Assembly: GCF_044324785.1 (NCBI RefSeq)
Contig: NZ_CP172127.1
Reading direction: 5' to 3' (one strand)
Origin: Escherichia coli
GTDB lineage: Bacteria; Pseudomonadota; Gammaproteobacteria; Enterobacterales; Enterobacteriaceae
DNA length: 64,000 nucleotides
Shown here: in pieces, positions 4,237-18,535 of the stretch
How positions within the stretch are numbered: the first letter of the stretch is position 1
Layout of the letters: each line of letters opens with the position of its first letter
Translations under genes and position numbers: made by a program
Notes under the pieces: model-generated
Told to the model about the DNA's origin: nothing
Databases searched by the model: none
What the model saw: the letters and a program-made list of their open reading frames with translations, nothing else

Positions 4237-5922
4237 TTGAAGAAGGTTTGGCTTAACCGTTATCCCGCGGACGTTCCGACGGAGATCAACCCTGACCGTT
4301 ATCAATCTCTGGTAGATATGTTTGAGCAGTCGGTCGCGCGCTACGCCGATCAACCCGCGTTTGTGAATATGGGGGAGGTGATGACCTTCCGCAAACTGGA
4401 AGAACGCAGTCGCGCGTTTGCCGCTTATTTGCAACAAGGGTTGGGACTGAAGAAAGGCGATCGCGTTGCGTTGATGATGCCTAATTTATTGCAATATCCG
4501 GTGGCGCTGTTTGGCATTTTGCGTGCCGGGATGATTGTCGTAAACGTTAACCCGTTGTATACCCCGCGTGAACTTGAGCATCAGCTTAACGATAGCGGCG
4601 CATCGGCGATTGTTATCGTGTCTAACTTTGCCCACACTCTGGAAAAAGTGGTTGATAAAACCGCCGTTCAGCACGTAATTCTGACCCGTATGGGCGATCA
4701 GCTATCTACGGCAAAAGGCACGGTAGTCAATTTCGTTGTTAAATACATCAAGCGTCTGGTGCCGAAATACCATCTGCCAGATGCCATTTCATTTCGTAGC
4801 GCCCTGCACAACGGCTACCGGATGCAGTACGTCAAACCCGAACTGGTGCCGGAAGATTTAGCTTTCCTGCAATACACCGGCGGTACCACTGGTGTGGCGA
4901 AAGGCGCGATGCTGACTCACCGCAATATGCTGGCGAACCTGGAACAGGTTAACGCGACCTATGGTCCGCTGTTGCATCCGGGCAAAGAGCTGGTGGTGAC
5001 GGCGCTGCCGCTGTATCACATTTTTGCACTGACCATTAACTGCCTGCTGTTTATCGAACTGGGTGGGCAGAACCTGCTTATCACTAATCCGCGCGATATT
5101 CCAGGGTTGGTAAAAGAGTTAGCGAAATATCCGTTTACCGCTATCACTGGCGTTAACACCTTGTTCAATGCGTTGCTGAACAATAAAGAGTTCCAGCAGC
5201 TGGATTTCTCCAGTCTGCATCTTTCCGCAGGCGGAGGGATGCCTGTTCAGCAAGTGGTGGCAGAACGTTGGGTGAAACTGACTGGACAGTATCTGCTGGA
5301 AGGTTATGGCCTGACCGAGTGTGCGCCGCTGGTCAGCGTTAACCCGTATGATATTGATTATCATAGTGGTAGCATCGGTTTGCCGGTGCCATCGACGGAA
5401 GCCAAACTGGTGGATGACGACGACAACGAAGTACCACCGGGTCAACCGGGTGAGCTTTGTGTCAAAGGACCGCAGGTGATGCTGGGTTACTGGCAGCGTC
5501 CGGATGCTACCGATGAAATCATCAAAAATGGCTGGTTACACACCGGCGACATCGCGGTGATGGATGAAGAAGGATTCCTGCGCATTGTCGATCGTAAAAA
5601 AGACATGATTCTGGTTTCCGGTTTTAACGTCTATCCCAACGAGATTGAAGATGTCGTCATGCAGCATCCTGGCGTACAGGAAGTCGCGGCTGTTGGCGTA
5701 CCTTCCGGCTCCAGTGGTGAAGCGGTGAAAATCTTCGTAGTGAAAAAAGATCCATCGCTTACCGAAGAGTCACTGGTGACTTTTTGCCGCCGTCAGCTCA
5801 CGGGCTACAAAGTACCGAAGCTGGTGGAGTTTCGTGATGAGTTACCGAAATCTAACGTCGGAAAAATTTTGCGACGAGAATTACGTGACGAAGCGCGCGG
5901 CAAAGTGGACAATAAAGCCTGA
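4237..5922 (+). CDS. fadD: long-chain fatty-acid-CoA ligase FadD
   Basis: AMP-binding signature [12 protein letters not shown]; conserved N-terminus [14 protein letters not shown] starts at TTG 4237 after a GAGGTG RBS; track ORF extends upstream to ATG 4171. Confidence 0.9.
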
Positions 5923-5941
5923 GCGTTAAGTCAGTCGTCAG

Positions 5942-5967
5942 ACGCCGGTTAATCCGGCGTTTTTTTT
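5942..5967 (+). terminator. intrinsic terminator of fadD
   Basis: ACGCCGG-TTAAT-CCGGCGT stem-loop followed by T8, 20 bp after the fadD stop. Confidence 0.8.
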
Positions 5968-13379: not shown

Positions 13380-14087
<708 letters not shown>

Positions 14088-14094
14088 TACTTTC

Positions 14095-14114
14095 AGCCCG
14101 CGTTGTCGCGGGCT
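14095..14114 (+). terminator. hairpin after leuE (terminator candidate)
   Basis: AGCCCGCG-TTGT-CGCGGGCT 8-bp GC stem 8 nt after the leuE stop; weak U-tract. Confidence 0.45.
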
Positions 14115-14169
14115 TCCCATCTGTAATCCTCCCTGATTCTTCTCTGATATGGTGCTAAAAAGTAACCAA

Positions 14170-14194
14170 TAAATGGTATTTAAAATGCAAATTA
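14170..14194. promoter_or_regulatory. NsrR-like operator upstream of yeaR-yoaG
   Basis: AT-rich imperfect inverted repeat AAATGGTATTT-A-AAATGCAAATT resembling the 11-1-11 NsrR motif, about 70 bp before yeaR. Confidence 0.5.
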
Positions 14195-14259
14195 TCAGGC
14201 GTACCCTGAAACGGCTGGAATAAACCATTTTCAGCGCATTCACCGAAGGAGGGAAAAGG

Positions 14260-14619
14260 ATGCTGCAAATCCCACAGAATTATATTCATACGCGCTCAAC
14301 GCCTTTCTGGAATAAACAAACTGCGCCTGCCGGAATATTCGAACGTCATCTTGATAAAGGAACGCGCCCGGGAGTTTACCCACGCCTTTCCGTTATGCAT
14401 GGGGCGGTCAAATATCTCGGCTACCCTGATGAACACAGTGCAGAGCCTGATCAAGTGATCCTTATCGAAGCGGGGCAGTTTGCGGTGTTCCCTCCAGAAA
14501 AGTGGCACAACATTGAAGCCATGACTGACGATACTTATTTCAACATTGACTTCTTCGTTGCCCCTGAAGTCCTGATGGAAGGTGCGCAACAACGGAAAGT
14601 CATTCATAACGGGAAATGA
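14260..14619 (+). CDS. yeaR: DUF1971 protein YeaR
   Basis: 119-aa ORF; 3-nt gap to yoaG suggests an operon. Confidence 0.85.
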   Translation: MLQIPQNYIHTRSTPFWNKQTAPAGIFERHLDKGTRPGVYPRLSVMHGAVKYLGYPDEHSAEPDQVILIEAGQFAVFPPEKWHNIEAMTDDTYFNIDFFVAPEVLMEGAQQRKVIHNGK

Positions 14620-14622
14620 ATC

Positions 14623-14805
14623 ATGGGCAAAGCAACGTATACCGTGACCGTCACCAATAACAGCAATGGCGTTTCTGTCGATTATGAAACAGAGACGCCG
14701 ATGACTTTGCTGGTGCCAGAAGTGGCGGCTGAAGTGATAAAAGATCTGGTGAATACCGTGCGTTCTTATGACACGGAAAACGAACATGATGTTTGTGGTT
14801 GGTAA
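14623..14805 (+). CDS. yoaG: DUF1869 small protein YoaG
   Basis: 60-aa ORF MGKATYTVTVTNNSNG immediately after yeaR. Confidence 0.8.
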   Translation: MGKATYTVTVTNNSNGVSVDYETETPMTLLVPEVAAEVIKDLVNTVRSYDTENEHDVCGW

Positions 14806-14952
14806 TTATCTCTGATCGTTGATGGCGCAATTTCTGCGCCATCGCAAAAAAATCCTCCGTGATGCTCGTCACAAATTTTGCCCTCCCGATGTTGTGCTAT
14901 GCTTTTTATCAGCGACTAACCCGCTAATGCAAAACAGATAAGTGAGGAAACA

Positions 14953-15201
14953 ATGGGCATTCTGTCATGGATTATTTTTGGGCTTATTGCCGGTATTCTG
15001 GCGAAGTGGATCATGCCAGGTAAAGATGGTGGTGGATTCTTTATGACTATCCTGCTGGGGATAGTCGGTGCCGTAGTCGGCGGATGGATCAGCACGCTGT
15101 TTGGCTTTGGTAAAGTCGATGGCTTCAATTTTGGCAGCTTCGTGGTTGCCGTTATTGGCGCGATTGTCGTGCTGTTTATCTACAGAAAGATTAAAAGTTA
15201 A
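14953..15201 (+). CDS. yeaQ: GlsB/YeaQ/YmgE-family small membrane protein
   Basis: 82-aa glycine-rich two-TM ORF MGILSWIIFGLIAGILAKW. Confidence 0.85.
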   Translation: MGILSWIIFGLIAGILAKWIMPGKDGGGFFMTILLGIVGAVVGGWISTLFGFGKVDGFNFGSFVVAVIGAIVVLFIYRKIKS

Positions 15202-15214
15202 CGTTTAAATTGCA

Positions 15215-15249
15215 CAAAGGCTGCACACAGGCAGCCTTTGCTATTTTCT
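15215..15249. terminator. terminator hairpin after yeaQ
   Basis: CAAAGGCTGC-ACACAG-GCAGCCTTTG 10-bp perfect stem followed by CTATTTTCT; lies between the yeaQ stop and the yoaJ stop. Confidence 0.7.
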
Positions 15250-15259
15250 AGATGTGACG

Positions 15260-15334
15260 TTACCACCATCCCAGCTCAGTGCCGAGTACGACAATAATCG
15301 CCACACCCATCATAATAATCGTTGTTTTTTTCAT
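15260..15334 (-). CDS. yoaJ: small membrane protein YoaJ (24 aa)
   Basis: Direct reverse-complement reading gives MKKTTIIMMGVAIIVVLGTELGWW then stop; below the ORF-track size cutoff. Confidence 0.75.
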   Translation of the reverse strand: MKKTTIIMMGVAIIVVLGTELGWW

Positions 15335-15336
15335 CT

Positions 15337-15435
15337 TTATGCTCCCGGGGCAGCATAGCCGCCAATAAAAAACCATGCTAAAAATACGACCGCTGTAATA
15401 AAGATTACAACCGGAAAAATAATACCGATTCGCAT
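15337..15435 (-). CDS. yoaK: small membrane protein YoaK (32 aa)
   Basis: Direct reading gives MRIGIIFPVVIFITAVVFLAWFFIGGYAAPGA then stop; ends 2 nt before the yoaJ start. Confidence 0.75.
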   Translation of the reverse strand: MRIGIIFPVVIFITAVVFLAWFFIGGYAAPGA

Positions 15436-15467
15436 GTTATCACCAATCAAAAGGATGTGAATACGCC

Positions 15468-16493
15468 TCAGGAATGTAGCGCTGGATGCGCGACAAAAGG
15501 GGTTTTCTGTTTGTGTTTTTTCTCCTGATACATCGCGATATCGGCAGCATGCAGGGCACTGTCTGCATCGGTCGTTTCAGGATCGACTTCTACTATGCCA
15601 AGACTGGCACCGGGATAATACAAATCAACATCACCTAAGTGATATTCTCCACGTATTTGCTGTTGAATACGTTCTCGCAGCGACGAAATATCCGCATTCT
15701 CGTTGTTCAGTGAAACAACCAAAAACTCATCACCGCCGAGACGACCAATAACTTCGCCATTTTGCTGGAGCGTATTAAGGCGCTCGCCAACCTGAATGAG
15801 GAACAAATCACCACTATTATGACCAAAACGATCGTTGATTAATTTGAAGTTATCCAGATCGATAAACGCGATCATTATCTTATGGTTAAGATGTCGGGCG
15901 AGAGAAAACAGCGTCGTCAGGTTTTCAAAAATCGCCCGCCGATTCGGTAGCCCGGTTAACGAGTCGGTATACGATTGCGCAATCAGCGCAGCATTGGCTT
16001 CGCGCAGCTGTTCTACCAGCGCCTCTTTTTGAATATATTGTGCAATCAGTCCGGCGAATAACTGCAAAACCTGTTCCGCGCGTTCACTCCACTGGCGCTT
16101 CTCACTACTGGCGGCGCAAAGCGTGCCATAGAATGATCCATCCGGTAAGTGAATTGGCGTGCTCAGAAATGTGGTGATGCCAAGATTGCGTGCCGCAATA
16201 CAGTCGCCCCAACGGTCAGGGACTTCATCGCTGAAAAAGCAGTTTTCATCAATGGCGCGTTTGCATAACGAGTAATCCCACGAGACGGTAAAATTCTCCG
16301 GGATGTGCATTTTCTGGCTGTTACGGGCAAACATAATATGCTGCAGGCGCGCTTCGACATCCACTTTGGTCAGGTAGGTTGATTCCATATCAGTGACCAT
16401 TTCCAGCATCTCCAGAAGCTGTCGGACCAGGCTTTCCAGTGACTGTTCTTTGGCAAGGGATTGCGAGACGCGGGCGATAATCTGATCTGACAC
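15468..16493 (-). CDS. dgcP: diguanylate cyclase DgcP (YeaP), GAF-GGDEF
   Basis: GGDEF motif RLGGDEF with I-site-like RxxD context; GTG start at 16493 gives the 341-aa product; track ORF extended upstream. Confidence 0.85.
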   Translation of the reverse strand: MSDQIIARVSQSLAKEQSLESLVRQLLEMLEMVTDMESTYLTKVDVEARLQHIMFARNSQKMHIPENFTVSWDYSLCKRAIDENCFFSDEVPDRWGDCIAARNLGITTFLSTPIHLPDGSFYGTLCAASSEKRQWSERAEQVLQLFAGLIAQYIQKEALVEQLREANAALIAQSYTDSLTGLPNRRAIFENLTTLFSLARHLNHKIMIAFIDLDNFKLINDRFGHNSGDLFLIQVGERLNTLQQNGEVIGRLGGDEFLVVSLNNENADISSLRERIQQQIRGEYHLGDVDLYYPGASLGIVEVDPETTDADSALHAADIAMYQEKKHKQKTPFVAHPALHS

Positions 16494-16675
16494 GAAACAA
16501 CTCCAGGATACGGCGGGTAAATGCTGATTATTTAATCTTTGCAGGCATGATAAAACATCATCAACAAAGATGAAACAAGGCGTAATATGATTTGAGTGAA
16601 TGTAATAAAAATAGTGCTGCAAAACAAAACGATACCGCGATACTCTAAGCCTGGATAAATATGTGAGATCAATAA

Positions 16676-16930
16676 ATGAAAATTATCAGTTTTGTTCTGC
16701 CTTGCTTGCTGGTTCTGGCTGGTTGTTCAACCTCTTCTCAGCCAGAAGCACCTAAACCGCCGCAGATTGGTATGGCAAATCCGGCGTCGGTCTATTGCCA
16801 GCAGAAGGGCGGGACGCTCATTCCAGTGCAGACAGCGCAAGGGGTCAGCAACAATTGCAAATTACCGGGCGGTGAAACGATTGATGAATGGGCATTGTGG
16901 CGACGGGACCATCCGGCTGGTGAAAAATAA
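16676..16930 (+). CDS. yoaF: DUF333 lipoprotein YoaF
   Basis: 84 aa; signal peptide with lipobox LAGC. Confidence 0.8.
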   Translation: MKIISFVLPCLLVLAGCSTSSQPEAPKPPQIGMANPASVYCQQKGGTLIPVQTAQGVSNNCKLPGGETIDEWALWRRDHPAGEK

Positions 16931-16951
16931 CCGCCGGATGCTGTACTAAAA

Positions 16952-17299
16952 TCACAAGCTACGTAGCCAGTCGGCCAGCACCAGCGCATGGTTCTGCGTG
17001 GTGTTTTTTGCTGAGTAGAGCAGGGTCAGCGGCTGTTTTTTGGCGATGTCCGCCAGCCGCTTTCCTTCTTGCTCGTGTTGCGCCAGTTCTGCAAGATATT
17101 GCTCGCGAAAGGTTGCAAAATCGACGACTTCGCCGTGAAAGGCTTTGCGCAGTTCCGTTGACGGCGTGATTTCTTTATCCCACTCATCAAGGGCTAAATC
17201 GGTTTTTTTGATACCACGCGGCCAGAGGCGGTCGACCAGTACGCGATAACCATCGCTCTGTTCTGCCGGATCATAAACGCGTTTGCACTGAATATTCAT
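16952..17299 (-). CDS. yeaO: DUF488 protein YeaO
   Basis: 115-aa product from ATG 17299 (MNIQCKRVYD); track ORF has a 7-codon upstream extension. Confidence 0.8.
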   Translation of the reverse strand: MNIQCKRVYDPAEQSDGYRVLVDRLWPRGIKKTDLALDEWDKEITPSTELRKAFHGEVVDFATFREQYLAELAQHEQEGKRLADIAKKQPLTLLYSAKNTTQNHALVLADWLRSL

Positions 17300-17353
17300 C
17301 GTGTTTGTTCTCCCTTCCACGCATGATTGGTCACGTCACTATAGCACCGGATA

Positions 17354-18535
17354 TTAGCGAATTTCTTTGTCTCTCCCGGCGCAAAGTCCGAAAATCGCCA
17401 TCAGTAGTGAAAGTATGGCAACACCCATCAATGGTATGGACCAGTCACCGTTAGTATCGTGTATTTTACCCATCAGCGGCGGCCCACAGGCTGCCAGCAA
17501 ATACCCGACGGATTGTGCCATCCCCGAGAGTGCCGCCGCCTGATGCGCAGAACTTGCCCGAAGACCAATGAACGTCAACCCTAGTATCATTGTTGCGCCG
17601 GAACCAAAACCGAAAAGCAGAGTCCAGGTGATCGCGTGCGCTGGCATAAAGCAGAGCCCAACCGCGCCCACTGCGCACATCAAGGCAACGAACGCTGCAA
17701 TACCACGCTGATCTTTCACATGATGTAAGAAAAGTGGGATCAGCAAACCGGGAGCTGCTGTGGCTAGTTGCAGCAAACCATGCAGTGAACCCGCCTGTGC
17801 TTCGCTATAGCCGTGACTGATGAGGATCGCCGGAAGCCAGCCAATAATCACGTAATAGATCAGTGAGTTGATCCCAAGAAACAATGTTACCTGCCAGGCA
17901 AGCGGCGAACGCCAGATACCCCGAGTATGTAAGGCGCGTGAGGTACTCAAATTTGCATGTTGTTGACTTCGCCACTGTGGCAGCCATAAAAAAAGAGCCA
18001 GCAGAGGAAAACACATCAGCATGAGCAACGCGCCTTGCCAGCCAAAACCGTTCAAAGCCAGCGGCACGACCATAGCCGATCCCAGTGCCGCTGCAGCTCC
18101 CATTGTCAGGGAATATGCGCCGGTAAGTCTGGCGACGGAATGAGGGAAATCGCGTTTAATTAATCCTGGCAGTAAGACATTGCCTAATGCAATCCCACCG
18201 CCAATGACCGCTGTACCGCCAAATAATAAGTAAGGCGAAGGGAGAGAGCGAATTGCGATACCAGCACAGATCAAAAGTAACGCGGCAAACAGGCTACGCT
18301 CCATACCAAAACGTCGCGCCACCGGGGCAGCCAGCGGTGAGATTAGCGCAAAGGCTAATAATGGCAGGGTGGTCAATAAGCCGGTTTGCGCCGTCGTCAG
18401 CGAGTAAGCGAAACGAATCGTATCCAGTAACGGTGCTGCGCCGGTAAAGGTGACGCGTAATGTTGTGGCAATCATTAGAATGCCAGCGATAAGGACAATC
18501 CTGTTTTTGCCGCTTAATGAAGTTGAACAGGTCAT
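17354..18535 (-). CDS. yeaN: MFS transporter YeaN (NimT)
   Basis: 393-aa 12-TM-like ORF divergent from the AraC-family regulator yeaM. Confidence 0.8.
   Translation of the reverse strand: MTCSTSLSGKNRIVLIAGILMIATTLRVTFTGAAPLLDTIRFAYSLTTAQTGLLTTLPLLAFALISPLAAPVARRFGMERSLFAALLLICAGIAIRSLPSPYLLFGGTAVIGGGIALGNVLLPGLIKRDFPHSVARLTGAYSLTMGAAAALGSAMVVPLALNGFGWQGALLMLMCFPLLALFLWLPQWRSQQHANLSTSRALHTRGIWRSPLAWQVTLFLGINSLIYYVIIGWLPAILISHGYSEAQAGSLHGLLQLATAAPGLLIPLFLHHVKDQRGIAAFVALMCAVGAVGLCFMPAHAITWTLLFGFGSGATMILGLTFIGLRASSAHQAAALSGMAQSVGYLLAACGPPLMGKIHDTNGDWSIPLMGVAILSLLMAIFGLCAGRDKEIR

Follow-up and report, generated by a model that had tools for sequence, protein, structure and literature searches.

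In Escherichia coli, the characterized small membrane proteins exert their effect through binding to a larger protein of the membrane. YoaK and YoaJ belong to a set of small membrane proteins that was reportedly described by Hemm, Storz, and colleagues. Among the small inner-membrane regulators listed in the literature are AcrZ, MgrB, MgtS, and CydX (PMC10470546). These are single-pass helices of less than 50 aa that are encoded in or next to operons and that bind a larger membrane protein, and the conserved face of the YoaK helix described below is consistent with this pattern. On the other hand, a back-to-back pair with a coupled start and stop, as seen in yoaK-yoaJ, is unusual in that set.

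Several experimental observations on the two proteins have been published. Chromosomally tagged YoaK is visible on immunoblots and is used there as a benchmark of weak small-protein expression (bioRxiv 10.1101/511675), and an HA-MBP-YoaJ fusion is integrally membrane-associated (PMC4597795). The same paper, in a statement that cites Fontaine et al. 2011, gives the type II (N-in/C-out) topology of YoaJ as experimentally confirmed. Purified RseP, a membrane protease, cleaves both YoaK and YoaJ in vitro, and the two are ranked there as "class II" candidate substrates (PMC10470546). In a passage of PMC12542507 that refers to Hemm 2010, YoaJ is said to go up after diamide, and YoaJ is also in use as a benign periplasmic fusion tag. 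At the transcript level, an RNA-seq operon resource assigns yeaP-yoaK-yoaJ to one operon (PMC4620388). According to these sources, as far as their statements on the two proteins go, YoaK and YoaJ are inserted into the inner membrane, YoaJ with its N-terminus in and its C-terminus out.

A different point of comparison is offered by temperate phages. The interval between cI and N, a recognized mosaic hotspot for defense genes that lysogens express, is occupied by rexAB in lambda and by bstA in BTP1 (PMC8585504). Phage-borne members of the YoaK family sit in the same slot, after the repressor and before variable cargo, whereas the yoaK gene studied here is chromosomal and follows a GGDEF gene. 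The products differ as well: RexB is built of several helices and BstA, with ~300 aa, is soluble, whereas YoaK counts 32 aa and has one helix.

Herein, we describe the yoaK-yoaJ pair in a stretch of 64,000 nucleotides of E. coli DNA (contig NZ_CP172127.1), referred to as the window. In our overall reading, which we consider very probably right, the locus holds the known yoaK and yoaJ genes at the end of a dgcP-yoaK-yoaJ transcript, with probably coupled translation and with helices that may bind a larger membrane partner. Both are already catalogued, annotated, and experimentally detected small-protein genes, and finding them adds nothing new in itself; spotting the pair is best seen as a correct positive control for the visual detection of very short genes. 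Comparison across species does yield testable handles on these two orphan proteins, namely a coupled-translation design shared across genera, a conserved face of the YoaK helix, and a robust link of the YoaK family to the repressor operons of temperate phages. The locus also gives one new lead, as relatives of YoaK lie right after the repressor gene in many prophages. If this link reflects function, it would provide the first biological context for a core E. coli small protein and would add a 32-residue peptide to the phage genes expressed in lysogens.

The yoaK-yoaJ locus

The features of the locus are collected in Table 1. Translation of both ranges bears out the coordinates, minus strand, lengths of 32 and 24 aa, and 2-nt gap that had been read by eye in a preliminary description of the window; the two nucleotides between the yoaK stop and the yoaJ start are AG. 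The names proposed there are correct too, since YoaK is 100% identical at the amino acid level to K-12 b4676 and YoaJ to K-12 b4675, and each protein passes its NCBIfam equivalog model over the full length. YoaK scores 69.1 bits against NF033821 (cut-off 32, E 1.8e-19, aligned 1-32 of 32), and YoaJ scores 60.4 bits against NF011343 (cut-off 54, E 1.1e-16, aligned 1-24 of 24). Compared with MG1655 over 281 nt, the window has one synonymous change in yoaK (TTT/TTC) and three substitutions in the non-coding tail. The pair thus matches that of K-12 in protein sequence, in its position between dgcP and yeaQ, in the 2-nt spacing, and in the terminator, and it does not differ in substance.

Table 1. 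Position of the yoaK-yoaJ genes, their signals, and their neighbors in the window
Feature	Position	Strand	Description	Basis
dgcP (yeaP)	15468..16493	-	GAF-GGDEF diguanylate cyclase, 5' gene of the unit	RefSeq annotation, translation, tblastn
dgcP stop codon	15470..15468	-	32 nt from here to the yoaK ATG	
yoaK Shine-Dalgarno-like GGTGAT	15439..15444	-	ends 3 nt 5' of the ATG	read from sequence
yoaK	15337..15435	-	32-aa single-pass small membrane protein MRIGIIFPVVIFITAVVFLAWFFIGGYAAPGA	translation, NF033821
yoaJ Shine-Dalgarno GGGAG	15342..15346	-	in YoaK codons P30-G31-A32, 7 nt 5' of the yoaJ ATG	
yoaK stop codon TAA	15339..15337	-	2 nt before the yoaJ ATG	window sequence
yoaJ start codon ATG	15334..15332	-		window sequence
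A7 run	15331..15325	-	directly 3' of the yoaJ ATG	
yoaJ	15260..15334	-	24-aa single-pass small membrane protein MKKTTIIMMGVAIIVVLGTELGWW	translation, NF011343
G+C-rich hairpin	15214..15241		11-bp stem, 6-nt loop, -21 kcal/mol, z -2.45; between convergent yoaJ and yeaQ	
yeaQ	14953..15201	+	82 aa, GlsB/YeaQ/YmgE family; convergent neighbor, context only, outside the operon	

The pair had also been called invisible to the ORF track. This holds under the length threshold used for that track; with a minimum of 20 aa, both genes are seen as ORFs of 37 and 38 aa, which are yoaK and yoaJ extended to an upstream TTG and ATG. Nor have the genes been overlooked in databases, as both carry RefSeq annotation in nearly every E. 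coli genome. The 186-nt yoaK-yoaJ region is found at a coverage of at least 80% in 5,403 of 5,426 complete E. coli genomes, and it is at least 99% identical in 4,891 of the 5,416 matching ones. In one strain, an IS1 deletion takes out yoaK and the 5' end of yoaJ, so the pair is non-essential.

Each protein has a single hydrophobic helix. The GRAVY values are 1.88 for YoaK and 1.22 for YoaJ, and the top 15-aa hydropathy window of YoaK reaches 3.10. The sequence of YoaJ, with KK near the N-terminus and GWW near the C-terminus, is consistent with the reported N-in/C-out orientation. That their functions are unknown, as the preliminary description had it, is still how the literature puts it. The experiments proposed there have largely been reported already, in the form of chromosomal tagging for YoaK and of membrane association and topology for YoaJ, and this published work already contradicts the refuting outcome named there, a lack of any tagged product.

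Coding status and selection

Chance alone produces many open frames of this size. A 3-kb stretch here is overlapped by 62 ORFs with a length of 20 aa or more, so the mere existence of such an ORF proves nothing about its status as a gene. What goes beyond chance is the conservation described below, together with the curated models and the identity to the K-12 genes. The comparative set comprised 80 loci, one genome per species, which were anchored on YeaQ and then scanned for small ORFs. The yoaK-yoaJ pair lies convergent to yeaQ in 29 of them, from Escherichia, Salmonella enterica subsp. arizonae, Citrobacter, Enterobacter, Leclercia, and one metagenome-assembled genome. Among the YeaQ-anchored loci of Klebsiella, Yersinia, Serratia, and others, no pair was found next to yeaQ. 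This does not prove absence because two loci (L096 and L097) have yoaK-yoaJ without an adjacent yeaQ, and the anchoring under-counts the distribution of the pair.

Pooled Nei-Gojobori estimates give an in-frame dN/dS of 0.049 for yoaK and of 0.162 for yoaJ, against 2.6-4.9 and 1.2-2.5, respectively, in the shifted frames. Variable third positions are spread over 30 of the 31 yoaK codons and over 21 of the 23 yoaJ codons. The low values in frame, set against values above 1 in the shifted frames, indicate that both are protein-coding and under purifying selection. Start codon, length, and stop are kept in more than 30 species, and YoaK is 81-94% identical between genera, as compared with 66-70% for the DgcP proteins of the same loci. 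Both yoaK and yoaJ are shown to be genuine protein-coding genes, and each encodes one hydrophobic helix.

Probable transcription unit and terminator

Anatomy and the RNA-seq study mentioned above lead us to infer that yoaK-yoaJ forms the tail of a dgcP-yoaK-yoaJ transcript. The distance from the dgcP stop to the yoaK ATG is 32-47 nt in all 29 dgcP-bearing loci, the window included, and a scan found no terminator-like site between the genes. The transcript would then end at the hairpin that follows yoaJ, a terminator it would have in common with the convergent yeaQ. Twenty orthologous sequences keep this hairpin, and 3 of the 10 pairs show compensatory double changes. E. coli has the better T-run toward yeaQ, Enterobacter toward yoaJ; as the favored side differs by lineage, the hairpin is best read as a bidirectional intrinsic terminator. 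Its distance from yoaJ, earlier given as 11 nt from the stop, needs correction: the strong core (15241..15214) starts 18 nt after the stop, and only weak outer pairs and an A-tract begin ~9-11 nt after it.

The pair can also stand without dgcP. In S. enterica subsp. arizonae (L008) and Citrobacter sedlakii (L013), yoaK and yoaJ are kept in the absence of dgcP, and yoaK faces yoaF across an intergenic region of ~160-200 nt. Its retention there implies a promoter of its own in those genomes and perhaps in E. coli too. A promoter scan of the E. coli sequence returned a single upstream sigma-70-like match, which overlaps the yoaK ATG, and such matches are no commoner than in shuffled sequences. 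A scan of the Salmonella intergenic region gave no match on the yoaK strand.

The yoaK-yoaJ junction

The spacing between the yoaK stop and the yoaJ start lies between +2 and -4 nt in every lineage examined. It is +2 nt in Escherichia, most Citrobacter, and Salmonella. Enterobacter and Leclercia have a spacing of 0 nt (TAAATG), and a single Citrobacter locus (L004) has one of -1 nt. Three more lineages, recovered by the profile search (L084, L096/L097, and L098), have an overlap of 4 nt, as ATGA or GTGA. The Enterobacter genes share one frame with nothing but a TAA between them, which rules out a longer YoaJ. The start codon of yoaJ is GTG in 7 of 30 unique orthologues.

Most orthologous loci have a motif of the GGTGA/GGTGG type at the Shine-Dalgarno-like site of yoaK, and the sequence further 5' diverges. 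The Shine-Dalgarno of yoaJ reads GGGAG or GGGGG across the orthologues, inside yoaK codons 30-32, and 28 unique orthologues keep either CCGGGAGCA or CCGGGGGCA at the junction. Of 28 unique sequences, 27 have A at the third base of Ala32 (entropy 0.22), whereas the remaining alanine codons of yoaK vary freely (1.6-1.7). This suppression of synonymous change points to an extra constraint at the nucleotide level. The junction combines a conserved, close or overlapping start and stop with a Shine-Dalgarno that is embedded in yoaK and subject to additional constraint.

On these comparative grounds, we infer that translation of yoaJ is probably coupled to that of yoaK. A ribosome that has completed yoaK would stop 2 nt short of the yoaJ ATG, over the Shine-Dalgarno formed by the last three yoaK codons, and coupling of this kind would lead to YoaK and YoaJ being made jointly and in similar amounts. 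The fold of the dgcP-yoaK-yoaJ junction RNA is no more stable than that of shuffled sequences (z = 0.53), and thus gives no hint that the yoaJ start is masked in a way that would make coupling obligatory. With its good Shine-Dalgarno, yoaJ could also initiate independently. In the literature examined, no experiment shows a dependence of yoaJ translation on that of yoaK.

The YoaK helix and its possible mode of action

The YoaK sequence of the window has the family motif FP...A...WF..GGYA.P within ~32 aa and one hydrophobic helix. Over 59 unique family members, F7, P8, A15, W21, F22, G26, Y27, A28, and P30 are invariant or nearly so. Conservation is periodic over residues 5-26, with a helical moment of 0.254 (permutation p = 0.002), and the variable positions 3, 6, 10, 14, 17, 20, and 24 form one stripe. 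Such a pattern fits a helix that would turn one stripe to the lipid and offer a conserved surface for protein contact. The solved structures searched contain no match to YoaK. We give even chances to the idea that YoaK packs its conserved face, to which F7, P8, A15, W21, F22, and G26 belong, on a larger, conserved inner-membrane protein, with YoaJ as a lineage-specific partner.

Relatives of YoaK in phages and prophages

A YoaK profile search over 1.84 billion representative proteins returned only 51 hits, and many of these are frameshifted or over-extended gene calls. The longer "YoaK" records of 52-97 aa, including a 57-aa YoaK-YoaJ fusion, likewise look like frameshifted assemblies or over-extended calls and were not accepted as true fusions. 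The divergent members of full length are encoded by prophages. In the prophage loci L082, L083, L091, L092/L093, and L094, the YoaK-family gene lies 4-48 nt 3' of a CI-type repressor gene on the same strand, with divergent cro- or cII-like genes upstream. In HK106, mEp234, mEp506, a Klebsiella phage, and several prophages, ORFs above the NF033821 cut-off lie 12-172 nt downstream of such a repressor, again on the same strand.

Phage genomes show the same arrangement. A tblastn search of GenBank phages found an unannotated YoaK-family ORF between cI and hicA in the lambdoid phages HK106, mEp234, and mEp506. The HK106 ORF (2501-2599 of locus L085) is directly downstream of the CI-type repressor, with no terminator predicted between the two, and the ORF of mEp234 falls within the pRM-to-Timm transcript of its annotated immunity region. 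As the first gene after CI, a phage YoaK homologue would be co-transcribed in lysogens ahead of the variable cargo of defense or toxin-antitoxin genes.

To widen the sample, IMG/VR was surveyed with a degenerate DNA pattern for W21..P30, which gave 90 matches, 89 of them true family members. Not all of these are phage genes: 34 of the 89 are host flank on contigs that end at the yoaK stop, and they were rejected as phage genes for this reason. In the one such locus that was looked at (L102), 266 nt separate dgcP from a phage integrase on its upstream side. The other 55 copies are of the phage type, and 45 of them have a CI-type repressor as the immediate upstream neighbor. These repressors make up 10 clusters below 60% identity, each of which matches HTH_3/Phage_CI_repr and/or Peptidase_S24.

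The phage copies are 32-34 aa long and pass the NF033821 cut-off at 55-68 bits. Their dN/dS of 0.167, as compared with ~1 in shifted frames, denotes purifying selection. The most diverse members of the YoaK family are phage genes. In the loci examined, a yoaJ-like ORF was never found after a phage copy. The gene that follows is hypervariable (at least 25 clusters) and includes BstA (380 bits), HicAB, a HipA-like kinase, and an ImmA-like peptidase. The family has no match in PHROGs or PADLOC, and our literature search found no publication on its association with CI repressors.

Alternative readings of the locus

Several other readings of yoaK-yoaJ have to be weighed against a known gene pair at the end of the dgcP transcript. 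The two ORFs could have arisen by chance in an untranslated 3' tail of dgcP, in a region that is otherwise spacer and terminator, and the plentiful frames of 20-40 aa in this stretch would suit that idea. Yet the in-frame dN/dS ratios against values above 1 in the other frames, the curated models passed by both proteins, the start, length, and stop conserved in more than 30 species, and the tagged proteins detected in published work refute it, and its probability is negligible. Hardly more credible are YoaK and YoaJ as type I toxin-like or holin-like peptides that damage the membrane and are silenced by an antisense RNA. Short and very hydrophobic single helices would be expected of such peptides, and the two were screened beside Hok toxins as RseP substrates (PMC10470546). 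However, there is no Rfam match in 14000-17500 at E values up to 1, no NCBIfam toxin match, and no long structured leader, and the opposite intergenic strand carries the yeaQ terminator only. The tagged proteins, moreover, build up in normal cells, and a peptide in use as a benign fusion tag makes a poor toxin candidate. In contrast to type I toxins of the Hok, Ldr, and Ibs type, yoaK-yoaJ has neither an RNA partner nor a family match, and we rejected a type I toxin locus on these two counts. More weight is due to the view that yoaK-yoaJ is an independent unit with a promoter inside or just after dgcP, in which yoaJ initiates by itself and the tight spacing reflects compactness. The pair does persist where dgcP is deleted (L008 and L013), yoaJ has its GGGAG at a suitable site 7 nt 5' of its ATG, the junction RNA has no significant structure, and YoaK is conserved far above DgcP. 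Against this stand the E. coli promoter match, which overlaps the yoaK ATG and is as frequent in shuffles, the Salmonella intergenic region devoid of a match on the yoaK strand, the three-gene operon called by RNA-seq (PMC4620388), and a spacing that never exceeds 2 nt and elsewhere becomes a 4-nt overlap, the usual signature of coupling. We regard an independent unit as possible but doubtful.

A last reading concerns function and builds on the phage relatives: YoaK, with or without YoaJ, would act in phage-host conflict or lysogeny, and the chromosomal gene would be a copy of a helix that phages express from their repressor operon. YoaK-family ORFs that pass NF033821 lie 3' of CI in HK106, mEp234, mEp506, a Klebsiella phage, and several prophages, and the IMG/VR copies extend this position to 10 repressor clusters. 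The purifying selection on the phage copies, the variable cargo with BstA, HicAB, and HipA-like genes behind them, and the known use of the cI-N interval by rexAB and bstA (PMC8585504) point the same way. Nevertheless, the window copy is a core chromosomal gene beside a diguanylate cyclase and outside any prophage, and we rejected it as a prophage immunity gene on account of this position. The phage copies are also without yoaJ, the family is missing from PADLOC and PHROGs, and a place in a hotspot amounts to guilt by association. The link between the YoaK family and CI repressors is an association, not a function, and a phage role of this kind appears rather unlikely to us. Conceivable forms, to be taken as speculative examples, are a block of superinfection at the inner membrane or the tuning of a host membrane protein in lysogens. 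Returning to a helix that binds a larger membrane protein, a tentative combination of both ideas, which we would not bet on, has YoaK targeting a conserved inner-membrane host protein for a phage-related end (superinfection exclusion or lysogeny control), with the dgcP-yoaK-yoaJ arrangement tying this activity to c-di-GMP or stationary-phase signaling.

Annotation of family members

The labels given to YoaK-family genes vary between databases. Neither YoaK nor YoaJ has a match in our local copy of Pfam, in PHROGs, or in PADLOC, and precomputed labels already include a newer Pfam family, PF28021:YoaK. RefSeq assigns the six HK106-type copies from E. coli prophages to the YoaK family, and the ORF of Klebsiella phage ST974-OXA48phi18.2 is mislabelled as a "CI transcriptional regulator." A separate chromosomal homologue of YoaK (L090) follows an unrelated MASE5-GGDEF gene and is not accompanied by yoaJ.

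YoaK and its cyclase neighbors

Judged by sequence identity, YoaK is much more constrained than DgcP, the enzyme encoded next to it. When the window (15468-16493) is compared with the YeaQ-anchored loci of other genomes, one per species (L002-L081), DgcP shows only 92% identity between Escherichia lineages and 66-70% to Citrobacter and Enterobacter, whereas the adjoining 32-aa YoaK retains 81-100%. dgcP is wholly absent, and yoaK-yoaJ kept, in Salmonella enterica subsp. arizonae (L008 4250-4700) and Citrobacter sedlakii (L013 4250-4650), and in both loci yoaK is divergent from yoaF. At a further locus (L090 1383-2635), a YoaK homologue without yoaJ, MKIGVLFPIAIIVAAIVFITWFIVGGYATQAS, starts 12 nt after an unrelated MASE5-GGDEF gene. 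This makes two independent pairings of YoaK with a gene for a diguanylate cyclase.

YoaK-family ORFs in phages and proviruses

The lambdoid phages HK106, mEp234, and mEp506 carry a 32-aa YoaK-family ORF between cI and hicA, where it is unannotated (the HK106 copy is MRIGIVFPILVFIVAMGFMAWFIIDGYATPSG); in Klebsiella phage ST974-OXA48phi18.2, the ORF bears the wrong label 'CI transcriptional regulator'. A CI-like repressor is found directly 5' of the ORF in 45 of the 55 phage-type copies from IMG/VR.

Matches with a chromosomal-type yoaK are present in IMG/VR as well. A dgcP-like ORF lies 5' of yoaK in nearly all of them (33/34), and in 29 of them the contig terminus is exactly the yoaK stop codon. 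At one of these loci (L102), a phage integrase gene is located 266 nt upstream of dgcP. It looks as if prophages integrate immediately 5' of dgcP in some Enterobacteriaceae, with host genes being swept into the provirus call.

Coordinates of YoaK-family ORFs, L102 genes, and window features
Feature	Location	Strand	Details
YoaK-family ORF, phage HK106	L085 2501-2599 = NC_019768.1 30461-30559	minus	
YoaK-family ORF, phage mEp234	L087 1562-1660		
YoaK-family ORF, Klebsiella phage ST974-OXA48phi18.2	L086 2501-2599		
Integrase gene	L102 5488-6471		
dgcP	L102 6737-7750		
yoaK	L102 7865-7964		
Sigma-70-like match	window 15434-15461	minus	TTCACA, 16-nt spacer, TAACAT, upstream TG
sroD small RNA	window 5881-5966	plus	Rfam RF00370, 115 bits

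Disrupted and apparently frameshifted copies

In E. coli NCCP 13717 (NZ_CP115984.1, L100 974-2573), an IS1 element stands in place of the dgcP 3' end, the whole of yoaK, and the 5' portion of yoaJ, giving a natural knockout of the yoaK-yoaJ pair in a clinical strain. In C. sedlakii NBRC 105722 (L013, about 4377-4389), the A-run after the yoaJ start has six A instead of seven (A7 at 15331-15325 in the window), which shifts the ATG out of the conserved YoaJ frame. Either this is a sequencing error, or the homopolymer carries a frameshift (pseudogene or slippage). Seven YoaK profile matches in the public protein set (P0001-P0004, P0008, P0017, and P0022; 52-97 aa) start with YoaK and then continue in another frame, among them a 57-aa YoaK-YoaJ 'fusion' (P0002). 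Instead of real fusions, these look like assemblies frameshifted around the CCCCGGG and A7 runs.

Promoter-like and RNA features

The -10 element of the sigma-70-like match overlaps the yoaK ATG. The match is probably due to chance; two such sites were found, against 3.5 expected. The 64-kb window holds no tRNA genes, and sroD is the only Rfam family that reaches its gathering score there.
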